Shown: positions 19,335-21,686, counted from the first letter of the stretch. The stretch: 25,098 nucleotides of DNA from a virus (UHGV-1632131), one strand, 5' to 3'. Notes: generated by a model from the sequence alone, not told the origin. Translations and numbers: made by a program.

Positions 19335-19406
19335 TCCTCAACATTAAGGAGGCATAGGGATTTTTTGTGGCGAGTATCTTTTGCCCTGAGTCTCCTTAAT
19401 GTTGCG
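19335..19406 (+). ncRNA. long-stem hairpin element E0
   Basis: Perfect 13-bp stem CAACATTAAGGAG (19338-19350) / CTCCTTAATGTTG (19391-19403); the 3' flank GTTGCGG-TAATGCAC resembles the GTTGTGG-TGAATGCAC flank of E3. Confidence 0.35.
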
Positions 19407-19612
19407 GTAATGCACCTATGCGGATGTGGCCTTGCATTGTGTCTTGAAAGAATGGGGTAAGGCCGGGGATATCCCCAGGGGGAGGCACCCCCGCCGCAAC
19501 GAACAGCCACAGACGGCAGTCGAGTGATGGAAACGTGCAAAGACTTTAAACCTCGTTACGGCTGGCGTGGCAAACGCGACAACCGAGACAGAGCGGTGAC
19601 GGGCGGAGAGAG

Positions 19613-19742
19613 TGCCGCATCAAGAAAGAAGCCGACTTGTGATCCCTTTCTGCGGGCATTTGAAAGTGGATCCAGCTCAGGCAGTCGGCTTCTTTCTTGT
19701 GTGAGATGTAGCGTATTTGCCCATCTCCGGGTGGGCTTTTTT
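19613..19742 (+). ncRNA. candidate small RNA: 16-bp perfect hairpin plus intrinsic terminator
   Basis: AAGAAAGAAGCCGACT (19621-19636) pairs perfectly with AGTCGGCTTCTTTCTT (19682-19697); inner GATCC/GGATC sub-stem in the loop; terminator GCCCA-TCTCCGGG-TGGGC (19718-19735) plus T7 (19736-19742). The 5' end is not defined. Confidence 0.45.
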
Positions 19743-19923
19743 TCAGTGTTTTCGTCATGGTTAGCGACTTTGCGGCGGTTTAGAAACCGACCATTAAAGT
19801 AAATGCAAACGATGATCTGATGATGGTAGCGGCCTAAGAAGCCTGACGCCACGGGGTATGAGTCGCCCCCCGTCAAGAAATCGACCGCAGAGTTTTCCCG
19901 TCTGTGTATTAAAGAACGGGGAG

Positions 19924-20007
19924 TCATAACAGGTAAGGGCGCTGGTGTGATTAACCAGATGAATGAGAAGGGTCAGGTCTTTCTTGGCAGCGTCCTTATC
20001 TGTTGTG
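19924..20007 (+). ncRNA. long-stem hairpin element E1
   Basis: AACAGGTAAGGGCGCTG (19927-19943) pairs with CAGCGTCCTTATCTGTT (19987-20003): 17 bp with two G-U pairs; 43-nt loop; ends in GTTGTGG. Confidence 0.4.
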
Positions 20008-20204
20008 GCAACTCGCGCAGCAGCCGGTGCTTAACAGCATTTGGACAGTTCCAAACCTAAGCGGGTATATCCCGTCATGCGGAAGGCGCTAACTACGCCG
20101 GAAGCCAGGGTCATGCACTCCCTGTTACCGAATTGCAGCCAGGGCGCGGTGCGCCGAAAAGCATACGAAGGTGGAAGCCCTTGCCGGAGACGTACCCGGT
20201 AATT

Positions 20205-20279
20205 GATGGTGTAGCTCAGCGGTAGAGCAGTTGGCTGTTAACCAACTGGTCGGTGGTTCGAATCCACTCACCATCGCCA
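20205..20279 (+). tRNA. tRNA-Asn (anticodon GTT)
   Basis: Manual cloverleaf: acceptor GATGGTG/CACCATC, D-arm GCTC-AGCGGTA-GAGC, anticodon arm GTTGG-CTGTTAA-CCAAC, T-arm GGTGG-TTCGAAT-CCACT, discriminator G, encoded CCA. Confidence 0.85.
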
Positions 20280-20281
20280 GT

Positions 20282-20357
20282 GCCGATTTAGCTCAGTTGG
20301 TAGAGCGCCTGCCTTGTAAGCAGGATGTCAGCGGTTCGAGTCCGTTAATCGGCACCA
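20282..20357 (+). tRNA. tRNA-Thr (anticodon TGT)
   Basis: Acceptor GCCGATT/AATCGGC, D-arm GCTC-AGTTGGTA-GAGC, anticodon arm CCTGC-CTTGTAA-GCAGG, T-arm AGCGG-TTCGAGT-CCGTT, discriminator A, encoded CCA; begins 3 nt after tRNA-Asn. Confidence 0.85.
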
Positions 20358-20445
20358 ACACAACAGGTAAGGGTATTTTGCGACGTCGGAGATCGCCGTG
20401 CTTGGCAGAGGGTTCGAATCCCTACGAAGTACCCTTACCGTTGTG
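20358..20445 (+). ncRNA. long-stem hairpin element E2 with an internal T-arm-like motif
   Basis: Starts immediately after the CCA of tRNA-Thr. CACAAC-[bulged A]-GGTAAGGGTA (20359-20375) pairs with TACCCTTACC-GTTGTG (20430-20445); the loop contains GGGTTCGAATCCC (20410-20422), a canonical T-stem-loop. Confidence 0.45.
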
Positions 20446-20582
20446 ATGAAGTGCAGCTCTTAGAAGCAACCAGAAGATAAGCATCTGGCTTCACAACATA
20501 AACCGCAGGAACGACCAATAAACGGTAGCCCGTATGGAGAACACCCCGTTGAGGAAGAGACCTGGCCGGAACCGTAACCGGC

Positions 20583-20678
20583 ACTACAACGTTGAGAACA
20601 CTGTCGTAACGGGGTCATATCCCAATTTACGAATAAATGTTGCGTTGCAGCGTGACAACCAGTGTTCTCAACATTGTG
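20583..20678 (+). ncRNA. long-stem hairpin element E3 (divergent arms, same architecture)
   Basis: CTACAACGTTGAGAACACTG (20583-20602) pairs with CAGTGTTCTCAACATTGTGG (20659-20678): 20 bp with one C-A and one G-U; the loop contains GGGGTCATATCCC (20610-20622); followed by the small hairpin GCACA-GGCTGA-TGTGC (20684-20699). Confidence 0.45.
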
Positions 20679-20858
20679 GTGAATGCACAGGCTGATGTGC
20701 CGCAACTACAGTAGTGCGCGCTTTGCGGGGCTTGCTACAACCCTGTGTCGGAGTTCAGCACCGACCATCACAGTTTGATTCTCTGGCATGAGCATAACGC
20801 TGAAATAAGTCCAGTCTGGTGCGGCCCGATCACCCGCCGTTAGCTCCACGAAACGGAG

Positions 20859-20936
20859 CGCACAACAGGTAAGAGCATTGAGCCGATAATCGTGAAGAGT
20901 CGGCGAGCCTGGTTAGCCAATGCTCTTTCCGTTGTG
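20859..20936 (+). ncRNA. long-stem hairpin element E4
   Basis: CACAAC-[bulged A]-GGTAAGAGCATTG (20860-20879) pairs with CAATGCTCTTTCC-GTTGTG (20917-20935); followed by the small hairpin GCGCA-GACTGA-TGCGC (20942-20957), which covaries with the one after E3. Confidence 0.45.
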
Positions 20937-21076
20937 GTTGATGCGCAGACTGATGCGCGGAAAGAAATGCCCCAGCGACACACGAGGCGAGTTCACACAC
21001 TGCAATGCAGTCAGTAGCCGGGGTCGCTAAGCCGGAGATCAGTACCGGTAACCACAACAATTGGAGAGTAGGGAGC

Positions 21077-21208
21077 ATGGTGCTCAAGCTGTCCGTGCTG
21101 GTGGATTTCACCAGCACAATCCTGTCGGTTTTATCGGACGGGGCGTTGGTGGCAGTAGCCGTAACATTGGTATGGCCGATATTTAAAATAGCTTCGAAGG
21201 ATCAGTGA
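21077..21208 (+). CDS. candidate small hydrophobic membrane peptide (43 aa)
   Basis: ATG at 21077 inside track ORF 21005..21208, with GGAGAG 8 nt upstream; MVLKLSVLVDFTSTILSVLSDGALVAVAVTLVWPIFKIASKDQ is largely one transmembrane helix; stop overlaps the next start (TGATG). Confidence 0.35.
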   Translation: MVLKLSVLVDFTSTILSVLSDGALVAVAVTLVWPIFKIASKDQ

Positions 21209-21312
21209 TGGGATTCTGGGATTTTGCTGACAAGTATCCAATTGTTCTCATTATTATTGTTGCCATAGTTGTAGGCGGCATTGTTAGCGCCATTGAAGCA
21301 CTTAGTAAATAG
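21208..21312 (+). CDS. candidate small hydrophobic membrane peptide (34 aa), absent from the ORF track
   Basis: ATG at 21208 with AAGGA Shine-Dalgarno 7 nt upstream (21196-21200); MGFWDFADKYPIVLIIIVAIVVGGIVSAIEALSK; TAG stop at 21310-21312, 6 nt before tRNA-Ile2. Confidence 0.4.
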   Translation: MGFWDFADKYPIVLIIIVAIVVGGIVSAIEALSK

Positions 21313-21318
21313 TAATCC

Positions 21319-21394
21319 GGCCCCTTAGCTCAGTGGTTAGAGCTGGCGACTCATAATCGCACGGTCATCGGTTCAAGTCCGGTAGGGGCCACCA
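21319..21394 (+). tRNA. tRNA-Ile2 (anticodon CAT, lysidine-type) or less likely tRNA-Met
   Basis: Acceptor GGCCCCT/AGGGGCC, D-arm GCTC-AGTGGTTA-GAGC, anticodon loop CTCATAA, T-arm ATCGG-TTCAAGT-CCGGT, discriminator A, CCA. The body closely resembles E. coli ileX-type tRNA as I recall it (GGCCCCUUAGCUCAGUGG ... CUCAUAAUCGC ... GGUUCAAGUCC ... AGGGGCCACCA). Confidence 0.8.
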
Positions 21395-21436
21395 TATTTG
21401 GTTGTAACACGGCGTATGGCACATGCGTCGATAGCG

Positions 21437-21545
21437 GTCTGGTGTAGCTGTTAGGTACCTTTTACTAACACTGTATGGGCACATCAGGTAGCCGGAATGT
21501 GCAAGCCCCGTTCATATCGTCGGACCGAGGACTCACCATCCTGGC
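21437..21545 (+). other. degenerate tRNA-like remnant (possible tRNA-Asn-derived pseudogene)
   Basis: Carries TGGTGTAGCT (matching the 5' acceptor/D region of the window's tRNA-Asn) and CTCACCATC (matching its 3' acceptor region), but the intervening approx. 80 nt do not form a canonical cloverleaf. Confidence 0.25.
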
Positions 21546-21575
21546 GATTCGGTGTGACAGCCGGAAGAGCACGGC

Positions 21576-21686
21576 ACATAACAGGTAAGGGTGTTTGATT
21601 AGCGCGTCATTATCGCTTGCGAAGTAGAGTCATCATCGAAAAGCAGCCCTTGACGGTCGATGCAATGAACATCCTTACCGTTGTGG
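21576..21686 (+). ncRNA. long-stem hairpin element E5
   Basis: CATAAC-[bulged A]-GGTAAGGGTG (21576-21594) pairs with CATCCTTACC-GTTGTG (21670-21685); 74-nt loop; 3' flank GTTGTGG-TAATTGCGG as in E0, E3 and E4. Confidence 0.4.

Follow-up and report, generated by a model that had tools for sequence, protein, structure and literature searches.

The DNA analyzed here is a stretch of 25,098 nucleotides from the virus UHGV-1632131, referred to below as the window. Between 19.3 and 21.7 kb it carries six long-stem hairpins, designated E0 to E5, interspersed with three tRNA genes and lying, as these do, on the plus strand. The features of the locus are collected in Table 1. The hairpins had been predicted from the sequence at these positions, and folding recovers one long stem at each of them, with stem energies of about -29 to -40 kcal/mol and z-scores of -3.2 to -6.6; in no case does any of 200 shuffled sequences fold as well. 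The stems measure 17–22 bp, slightly more than the 13–20 bp first estimated. A repeat scan recovers the shared arms as repeat families D1/D2 and as inverted repeats I1, I3, I10 and I11, and scanning the whole window confines the arm motifs to the interval given above. The span, originally described as holding no convincing long ORF, is not free of ORFs, two small conserved ones (tciB-like and tciC-like) being located between E4 and the third tRNA gene.

Table 1. Positions of hairpins, genes and signals in the window; R2 scores are those of the covariance model described in the text
Feature	Position	Strand	Remarks
Sigma-70-like promoter candidate, CTAACA-17-TATAAT	19094..19122	+	10/12 matches, promoter scan
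E0 hairpin, 15-bp-plus, CAAC/GTTG base	19335..19406	+	-29.5 kcal/mol, z -5.1
Perfect 17-bp hairpin (19621-19699, I5), then intrinsic terminator (19716-19745)	19621..19745	+	
E1 family hairpin, stem 19924-20007	19922..20032	+	R2 34.2 bits, E 9e-8; z -6.5
tRNA-Asn (GTT)	20205..20279	+	
tRNA-Thr (TGT)	20282..20357	+	CCA end lies immediately next to E2
E2 family hairpin, stem 20358-20445	20356..20470	+	R2 55.5 bits
E3 family hairpin, divergent compensated stem ACAACGUUGAGAACACUG/CAGUGUUCUCAACAUUGU	20582..20703	+	R2 35.0 bits; z -6.6
Small 5' flanking hairpin, GCUCC-ACGAAAC-GGAGC	20843..20859	+	Seen again in many phages upstream of family hairpins
E4 family hairpin, stem 20860-20936	20858..20961	+	R2 80.4 bits
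tciB-like ORF	21077-21208	+	94% identical to P1 protein
tciC-like ORF	21208-21312	+	74% identical to P1 protein
tRNA, anticodon CAT (Met/Ile2)	21319..21394	+	Ortholog annotated tRNA-Ile2 in P1
E5 family hairpin, longest insert, stem 21576-21686	21574..21710	+	R2 43.4 bits; z -3.2

The promoter candidate adjoins inverted repeat I6 (19011-19028/19074-19091) and is a possible start of the array transcript. No match to the P1 C1 operator occurs in the window. The perfect hairpin and terminator between E0 and E1 correspond, according to positions matched via the megablast offset, to a region annotated in P1 as the misc_feature 'dicF-like region'. This terminator is the only one found by a plus-strand scan for intrinsic terminators, and E0 to E5 themselves are without U-tract. 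The conserved parts are moreover the inverted arms of single hairpins, spaced 225–716 nt from copy to copy with tRNAs and ORFs in between, unlike a CRISPR array, and ARAGORN and the Rfam model RF00005 call only the three known tRNAs and none on E0–E5, even at E <= 10. The original view that these elements are neither CRISPR, terminators nor tRNAs is thus upheld.

In E2, E4 and E5 the single unpaired A predicted in the 5' arm is found by folding in the exact pattern described below for the family. In E1, for which a G-U pair had been proposed at this position, the A is matched by an extra U and the stem is fully paired, the G.U being the neighbouring pair; E3 has a C.A mismatch instead of the bulge. 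E3 and E4 are each followed by a small 3' hairpin, GCACA-GGCUGA-UGUGC (20685-20700) and GCGCA-GACUGA-UGCGC (20943-20958) respectively, the two versions covarying. The insert of E2 has a tRNA-like layout, composed of a D-arm-like GCGA-CGUCGGAGA-UCGC, a short hairpin and a T-arm AGGG-UUCGAAU-CCCU. The 3' arm of E2 with its flank is also identical at 14 of 15 positions to the GcvB R1 region, and its 5' base equals the GcvB target consensus.

A stem-loop family of phages of Enterobacterales

A covariance model, R2, was built from 48 sequences from outside the window. Applied to the 25 kb it retrieves E1 to E5 (E 8e-21 to 9e-8) and nothing else, E0 being absent at E <= 1. What E0 has in common with the others is limited to the CAAC/GTTG base and a portion of the 3' flank, and its 21.9 bits were obtained with a model, R1, whose training set included E0; the same element as E0 is carried by D6 (L002 1514-1610). 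Because the window-free model misses E0 and finds E1–E5, the array, originally presented as six elements of one architecture, is here counted as five robust members and one looser relative.

The family stem, of about 20 bp with YAAC/GUUR at its base, reads (C)AYAAC followed by a bulged A and GG; a U.U mismatch separates these from about 10 covarying base pairs. Among 123 unique family hairpins the 5' bulged A is present in 106 and the U.U mismatch in 91. In an alignment of 54 family members, 85.7% of cells are paired versus 77.9% in shuffles, and both-sided changes occur in fourteen pairs and, among the 13 distal pairs, in 8; none of 500 shuffles reaches the observed value on any measure. The compensatory arm changes noticed between the copies are confirmed by this alignment, and with them the proposal of paralogous RNA structures under selection for pairing.

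The same stem is found in lambdoid, T1-like and P1/D6-like phages of Enterobacterales, enclosing at least 72 unrelated inserts. It is thus not confined to P1-like phages, and E1–E5 are members of a widespread, uncatalogued family of phage RNA stem-loops. Searching Rfam 15 with gathering thresholds, and again down to E <= 10, yielded the three tRNAs only, in addition to weak matches to a miRNA precursor, tmRNA and YrlA, none of them meaningfully on a hairpin. No Rfam family and no database annotation covers these hairpins, and a literature search by sequence string returned nothing relevant to them. The DLP12 prophage of K-12 holds no family copy, and P22 15000-21000 (6 kb, from ant to gtrA) gives no R2 match.

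Several known elements were considered as identities and rejected. The 3' arm UGCUCUUU resembles the rrn boxA, which was dismissed because the boxA-like stretch is base-paired and replaced in compensatory stem variants. The anti-sRNAs AgvB and AsxR, encoded in the same 'moron' region of EHEC prophages, have a different architecture: they are short primary transcripts from the antisense strand, conserved in their 3' part and variable at the 5' end. The P22 small RNA P22E, upstream of gene 13, is unrelated in sequence, and the duplexes predicted for a GcvB mimic or sponge are not remarkable in energy.

The original prediction implied an element not described before and restricted to this locus; this is not supported, given the wide occurrence of the family across phages of Enterobacterales and two relatives in particular. 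In the first, the stem and insert of E4 are 97% identical to lambda 44786-44862, situated directly after the late terminator tR', 5 nt past its U-tract; in an alignment of E4, P1 and lambda, the recombination breakpoints fall in the arms. The title of Daniels, Subbarao, Blattner and Lozeron (1988, Virology 167:568) announces RNase III processing sites of the lambda late (pR') transcript in vivo, and judging from position and structure the lambda hairpin is probably the site meant by that title.

The second relative is a hairpin upstream of dicF in the K-12 prophage Qin (L125 24171-24282), which scores 26.4 bits with R2 (E 1.4e-5) and 24.9 bits with the other covariance model. This score is modest and the likeness to the family is one of architecture more than of sequence, the fold running from YAAC over a 1-nt bulge, 2 bp, a mismatch and 10 bp to GUUGUGG. 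The Qin copy is cut in an RNase III-dependent manner, and the 190-nt DicF species has an RNase III-dependent 5' end (Faubladier et al. 1990; PMC10448788). The sequence in Fig. S1B of PMC10448788 spans the insert and 3' arm of this hairpin. A distance of 190 nt from the DicF 3' end leads to L125 ~24246, inside the 3' arm; as this length is a gel estimate, the cut is placed there only to within a few nucleotides. The published Qin site therefore lies inside a family hairpin.

In Qin, loss of rnc also destabilizes the upstream ydfABC RNA (PMC10448788), and the element therefore affects stability. This bears on a reading in which the hairpins are passive, REP-like stabilizers or insulators that block exonucleases and keep tRNA folding independent of the flanks, RNase III being unneeded. 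Long and stable stems placed between independently folding units are what such a reading expects; a plain exonuclease block, however, needs no conserved bulged A, U.U mismatch or YAAC/GUUR base, and the Qin copy is cut RNase III-dependently, so that we regard passive stabilization as improbable.

Strand preference and tRNA neighbourhood

The 123 unique hairpins contain 201 G.U pairs versus 9 A.C mismatches, and the model scores are two- to threefold higher on the plus strand than on the minus strand. For 71 hairpins a tRNA lies no more than 400 nt away; in 63 cases the two share a strand, and in 8 they are on opposite strands. The G.U to A.C ratio and the co-orientation with tRNAs show that the element acts as RNA.

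These counts weigh against a role at the level of DNA, either as attC-like single-strand hairpin recombination sites or as inverted-repeat ends of a small mobile element. The AAC...GTT ends, the extrahelical base and a centre variable in length and sequence are indeed reminiscent of attC, the hairpin is found in unrelated phages, and the mosaic breakpoints in the arms could reflect recombination at the element. Yet when GCACAAC ... GTTGTGG is compared with the integron boxes RYYYAAC ... GTTRRRY, only AAC/GTT fit and positions 3 and 5–7 break the consensus. An attC defined by its folded DNA strand fares no better, as the orientation follows the tRNAs and transcription, G.U is tolerated on the sense strand and a homolog is cut as RNA. 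The arm breakpoints are equally explained by ordinary homologous recombination, while the G.U excess and the strand-specific model fit indicate selection on the transcript. We know of no obvious recombinase shared by the lambdoid, P1-like and T1-like carriers, whose lifestyles are very different. A DNA-level function is in our opinion hardly credible.

Direct contact with tRNA genes is frequent: 24 hairpins abut a tRNA end, eighteen tRNAs ending 2–4 nt before the YAAC motif of the stem and six starting at or inside its GTTG end. In the T1-like Klebsiella phage ZCKP8, a 78.5-bit copy lies upstream of two tRNAs, all three being antisense to the annotated genes next to them; there, consequently, the hairpin does not punctuate an mRNA operon.

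Proposed processing of the transcript and possible role of the inserts

Several roles had been proposed for the array, and that of RNase III processing cassettes is now favoured, single-strand recombination sites losing ground through the G.U excess, the strand-specific fit and the published cleavage of a homolog. We consider it likely that E1–E5, and loosely E0, belong to a family whose characterized relatives are substrates of the host RNase III, and that they serve as punctuation of an operon of tRNAs, small RNA and small ORFs.

According to this proposal, the hairpins would lie in one plus-strand transcript of this P1/D6-like phage-plasmid, in the region that corresponds to the P1 ban operon leader. 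RNase III would cut each stem of about 20 bp and so separate from one another a dicF-like small RNA, the pair of tRNA-Asn and tRNA-Thr, an mRNA for the tciB/tciC small ORFs that also holds the third tRNA, and the mRNA further downstream. A cut in a hairpin that adjoins a tRNA would leave a leader or trailer of about 10–15 nt to be removed by RNase P or 3' exonucleases; away from tRNAs, the small hairpins in the flanks would serve as caps for the newly formed RNA ends. The position or strand of the cut is probably fine-tuned by the bulged A and the U.U mismatch. The conserved arms may double as short patches of homology, by which hairpins and inserts would be exchanged between unrelated phages.

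A pure processing signal leaves two features of the inserts unexplained, the existence of at least 72 discrete, internally structured types and the enrichment of T-arm-like modules.

The inserts might themselves be the functional product, the stem acting as a processing scaffold, as in a pri-miRNA or an rRNA stalk, that releases a small RNA of 40–110 nt; this would add to RNase III cleavage. The identity of the small RNA would differ by cassette, some being tRNA-like decoys, for instance for tRNA-targeting defence or for modification enzymes. Consistent with such a function, the unrelated insert clusters stand behind nearly invariant arms and are discrete conserved alleles, as exemplified by the lambda allele in the plasmid of the window. 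T-arm-like hairpins occur in 6 of the 72 clusters versus 0.09 expected, the insert of E2 has parts resembling a D-arm and a T-arm, set on a long 'acceptor' stem, and a sub-motif, ACGGG-UCAUAU-CCC-AAUC, is found inside the covarying outer stems of three different hairpins. On the other hand, accumulation of an insert RNA is hypothetical, variation within an allele is too small to assess covariation, no tRNA or YrlA model matches, and the T-arm pieces are possibly recombination debris from neighbouring tRNA genes. A cut in the 3' arm only, as at T7 sites, would moreover leave the insert attached to the RNA upstream of it, where, as a merely passive 3' cap, it would be free to vary. Functional inserts thus seem rather unlikely to us. 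With the same reserve, the stem could be viewed as a portable expression-and-processing scaffold and the insert types as a shuffled repertoire of small RNAs, decoys or sponges directed against host tRNA-targeting or RNA-based functions; lineages may then swap inserts via arm recombination, together with Arg/Ile/Thr/Asn tRNA cassettes.

Phage tRNA genes have been studied as counter-measures to host defences and in relation to codon bias, but their release from long transcripts has rarely been asked about. The RNase III sites of the lambda late leader and the one upstream of dicF, both old observations that had stood apart, are here brought into one structured RNA family; its unannotated copies in P1-like, lambdoid and T1-like phages number in the hundreds, and the family travels with tRNA cassettes. 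It is a candidate new family for Rfam and for genome annotation, and some annotated ORFs over the palindromes, such as P1 plp and upl and lambda orf-64, may be artefacts. The hairpin is a natural modular RNase III cassette usable for multi-gene RNA processing and, should the inserts be functional, it would represent a bacterial analogue of a pri-miRNA-like small-RNA platform.

Relation to known systems

The long basal stem of E2, with its T-arm, D-arm-like hairpin and shortened middle arm, is reminiscent of YrlA and other tRNA-like small RNAs. Neither the YrlA nor the tRNA model matches on E2, however, and the tRNA-like look is limited to a minority of inserts. The only YrlA (RF02553) match, weak at 19.5 bits and E 1.1, falls on the junction of two tRNAs and not on a hairpin. 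To our knowledge, no Ro/Rsr gene is present in these phages.

After cleavage at the RNase III sites between the T7 early genes (R0.3, R0.5, R1.1 and others), the upstream RNA keeps a 3' hairpin that protects it. These sites too are internally irregular phage hairpins, and they punctuate a polycistronic transcript, as is proposed for the present family, but they are unrelated in sequence, separate mRNAs rather than tRNAs, and lack a large variable insert. The metY-nusA-infB hairpins downstream of metY (tRNA-fMet) and the stalks of rRNA operons are also long stems whose cleavage by RNase III frees a tRNA or rRNA from a longer transcript; in E. coli, such hairpins release the metY tRNA (Regnier and Grunberg-Manago 1989). 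They differ in being chromosomal, confined to single loci and unrelated in sequence to the phage hairpins.

The Qin hairpin, as E0 and E1, is near a small RNA with its own terminator, but its stem sequence is different (GCGAAAGCGCAUGG/CCGUGCGCUUCCG), it has no adjacent tRNA, and in the literature the site is treated as a feature of one locus and not as a family. The lambda element at 44786-44862 corresponds to E4 in both stem and insert; in lambda it is a single copy without tRNAs, whereas in the window five or six copies are interleaved with three tRNA genes.

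The hairpin array and its relatives

It is strongly supported that the hairpins E0–E5 represent a real structured RNA family. Over the stretch tested, the window matches plasmid NZ_CP183151.1 (E. coli strain 455) at 100% identity, and its nearest phage relatives are D6 and P1 (approximately 91% identity). The counterpart of window 19.2–21.9 kb is the leader of the P1 ban operon, with the order C1-controlled promoter, 'dicF-like region', trnA, trnT, tciA/B/C, trnI and ban. The three tRNAs originally predicted on the + strand are called by ARAGORN and Rfam alike; tRNA-Thr ends at 20357 and directly adjoins E2, which starts at 20358, and tciB-like and tciC-like ORFs lie between E4 and tRNA-CAT. 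Each of E0–E5 forms one long stem (z-scores −3.2 to −6.6), and none of 200 shuffles folds equally well. Repeat finding recovers the 5' and 3' arms that had been proposed to be shared by the copies, and arm motifs and long inverted repeats are restricted to 19.3–21.7 kb of the window. The Rfam search suggested with the original prediction returned no known family on the hairpins, even at E ≤ 10.

Other features of the region are collected in the table. Judging from the sequence, the promoter-like site and the neighbouring inverted repeat could possibly be a repressor-controlled promoter of the array; the P1 C1-operator consensus occurs nowhere in the window. The segment at the 'dicF-like' position is not matched by the Rfam DicF model and, by analogy with DicF in Qin, may be an uncharacterised small RNA from the array transcript. 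Another small hairpin is conserved too: its loop is AGGCA, its stems covary (GGGGG/CCCCC, GGUGG/CCACC, CCUGG/CCAGG), and both window copies are followed by GCCRCAAC.

Positions of features in the window and in related loci
Feature	Sequence	Position	Strand	Remark
Inverted repeat	window	within 19011–19122		GTGCTGGTGGGGTGATAT / ATCTTAACCCACCAGCAC; beside promoter-like site
Promoter-like site	window	19094–19122		CTAACA-17-TATAAT, strong; promoter scan
AGGCA-loop hairpin	window	19476–19500, 21787–21811		
AGGCA-loop hairpin	Qin (L125)	~24565–24580		upstream of dicB
Perfect 17-bp hairpin, then intrinsic terminator	window	19621–19745		position labelled 'dicF-like' in P1
E2 insert	window	20378–20430		
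GcvB-like segment	window	20434–20448		CTTACCGTTGTGATG; E2 3' arm and flank
GcvB R1 seed region	gcvB (L182)	58–72		
ACGGG sub-motif	window	20604–20632		E3 insert
ACGGG sub-motif	P1 (L001, NC_005856)	2670–2700		
ORFs plp and upl	P1 (L001)	2118–2687	−	= window 20358–20940
Hairpin between ydfC and dicF	Qin (L125)	24171–24282		NC_000913 1649170–1649281
Weaker match between cspB and essQ	Qin (L125)	16142–16239	−	late operon
Lambda hairpin	lambda	44786–44862		
Two tRNAs	phage ZCKP8 (L184)	2610–2766		

The covariance model R1, whose training set included the window sequences, gives exactly six hits over the 25 kb, all on the + strand. R2, built from 48 sequences of which none comes from the window, scores E4 at 80.4, E2 at 55.5, E5 at 43.4, E3 at 35.0 and E1 at 34.2 bits (E 8e-21 to 9e-8) and does not recover E0 at E ≤ 1. 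Thus E1–E5 are secure members and E0, an element also carried by D6, is a looser relative. P1 has four copies of the hairpin and D6 has six.

When E4 and its flanks were used as BLAST query, lambda matched at 97% identity and the hairpin was found in many lambdoid, Klebsiella, Cronobacter and T1-like phages. The hairpins are therefore not confined to P1-like phages. The lambda copy lies within the hypothetical 'orf-64', upstream of S, and starts 5 nt past the U-tract that ends the late terminator tR'. Scanning viral contigs with the pattern AACAGGTAAG-N45-75-CTTWCCGTTG yielded at least 120 stretches with at least 89 different cores. Applied to one genome of each species, this pattern yielded 57 matches (56 stretches), of which 15 fold as a hairpin, all from Enterobacterales save one probable contaminant contig; the other 42, without hairpin, are spread over other phyla in a number close to chance expectation and serve as an internal control. 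In the T1-like Klebsiella phage ZCKP8 a copy scoring 78.5 bits precedes two tRNAs (Arg-UCU and CAT) by about 70 nt; the hairpin-plus-tRNA module thus moves between phage lineages. These tRNAs, read from the sequence, are without annotation in the record and antisense to neighbouring annotated genes.

The P1 ORFs plp and upl extend exactly across the copies of E2, E3 and E4, and lambda orf-64 overlaps the lambda hairpin; all three may be artefacts of palindromic RNA elements.

Architecture, covariation and inserts

The repeated unit consists of an upstream part, the long stem, and a downstream part. Upstream there is a tR'-like terminator, the hairpin GCUCC-ACGAAAC-GGAGC, another short hairpin or the 3' end of a tRNA; downstream there is either the small hairpin UGAAU-GCGCA-GGCUGA-UGCGC or a tRNA beginning at the stem's last bases. 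The long stem is composed of (C)AYAAC, a bulged A, GG, a U.U mismatch and approximately 10 bp, and its arms enclose an insert of 20–135 nt (median 41) belonging to at least 72 unrelated sequence clusters.

Covariation was analyzed in an alignment of the six window hairpins and 48 others with distinct inserts (54 in all), in which the proximal 10 nt of each arm are fixed by the search pattern and only the distal stem is informative. Paired cells amount to 85.7%, compared with 77.9% in shuffles; 14 pairs, including 8 of the 13 distal ones, change on both sides; none of 500 shuffles matches the observed value on any of five measures; and sliding the partner columns destroys the signal. A looser scan recovered divergent members with a covarying proximal stem as well, for example GUUGAGAACACUG, GAUAAUCGGAAUU, GCAGGGCAUCUUU and GGGUAGCUCACUUG, each with its complement. 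Selection on the paired structure through compensatory arm changes, as first proposed, is thereby confirmed.

Among 123 unique hairpins, G.U pairs number 201 and A.C mismatches only 9, and covariance-model scores on the + strand are two- to threefold above those of the opposite strand, which argues against the earlier suggestion of single-strand DNA recombination sites. Moreover, 63 of the 71 hairpins having a tRNA within 400 nt lie on the same strand as it, 18 tRNAs end 2–4 nt ahead of the YAAC motif, flush with the stem base, and six start 1–3 nt inside the stem end. The element is thus recognised in the RNA transcript and stands in physical linkage with tRNA genes.

At the E4 position the window and P1 agree fully as far as the hairpin base, both arms are common to them, the inserts are unrelated, and divergence resumes after the 3' arm. 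The window E4 insert is that of lambda, and D6 has a third, different hairpin at this position. The arms thus behave like short stretches of homology at which unrelated phages exchange sequence, so that the discrete insert 'alleles' need no special recombinase.

The inserts do not look plainly neutral: six of the 72 insert clusters contain T-arm-like hairpins (0.09 expected), and the E2 insert has a tRNA-like arrangement on a 22-bp stem, in which a D-arm-like GCGA-CGUCGGAGA-UCGC and a short hairpin precede a canonical T-arm (AGGG-UUCGAAU-CCCU), a layout on a long stem similar to that of a Y RNA or a tRNA mimic; ARAGORN and Rfam call it neither tRNA nor YrlA. Three hairpins that differ in other respects (window, P1 and a further locus, L058) share the sub-motif ACGGG-(U)UCAUAU-CCC-AAUC, enclosed by covarying outer stems CGUA/UACG, CUGUA/UACAG and GCGUG/CACGC. 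On these grounds the stem may be a scaffold releasing small RNAs from the insert, but the same features could equally be debris of recombination with neighbouring tRNA genes.

The GcvB-like segment of E2 is identical at 14 of 15 positions to the GcvB R1 seed region, and the 5' base CACAACA of the hairpins is the consensus published for GcvB targets. The duplexes predicted with GcvB have unremarkable energies, and the resemblance may be coincidence.

RNase III and the proposed division of the transcript

Both models match two sites in the E. coli K-12 prophage Qin. The hairpin upstream of dicF (24.9 and 26.4 bits, E ~1.4e-5) differs from the family in stem sequence but has the same fold: 7 bp, bulge, 2 bp, mismatch, 10 bp. 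The weaker match (19–23 bits) is A+U-rich. A Δrnc strain loses the 190-nt DicF species, whose 5' end was identified as an RNase III cut by primer extension, and upstream ydfABC RNA was undetected without RNase III (PMC10448788, confirming Faubladier et al. 1990). The sequence in Fig. S1B of PMC10448788 starts inside the Qin hairpin insert and continues through the 3' arm; counting 190 nt back from the DicF 3' end (L125 24435) leads to approximately 24246, accurate to a few nucleotides, in CCGUGCG^CUUCCGGUUGUGG of the 3' arm. For the lambda late transcript, Daniels et al. [quoted passage not shown]

No annotation of the hairpin exists in the lambda, P1 or D6 records or in the RefSeq E. coli matches examined, and text searches of the literature found no description of the family. 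The absence of an Rfam model and of annotation agrees with the original view that the element had not been described; on the other hand, two relatives have long been tied experimentally to RNase III, and this kind of element is therefore already known. As far as we could find, it had not been recognised before that these hairpins form a family, that the family is modular in architecture and coupled to the tRNA cassettes of phages, and that P1/D6-like plasmids carry an array of five to six copies.

In the mechanism that seems most likely, the stems of about 20 bp would be cut by RNase III, dividing a transcript that would run through E0, the dicF-like hairpin and terminator, E1, tRNA-Asn, tRNA-Thr, E2, E3, E4, the tciB-like and tciC-like ORFs, tRNA-CAT, E5 and the next ORFs. 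A cut beside a tRNA would leave a short leader or trailer to RNase P or exonucleases, and the small flanking hairpins seem well placed to cap the new RNA ends; the loss of ydfABC RNA in Δrnc would fit a stabilising 3' structure on the upstream product. For the window's own copies, cleavage, tRNA release and end capping are inferred. Cutting may be restricted by the conserved bulge and mismatch, much as it is by internal loops at T7 RNase III sites. A cut beside a tRNA would resemble the E. coli metY-nusA case and the action of RNase III in the T4 tRNA cluster.
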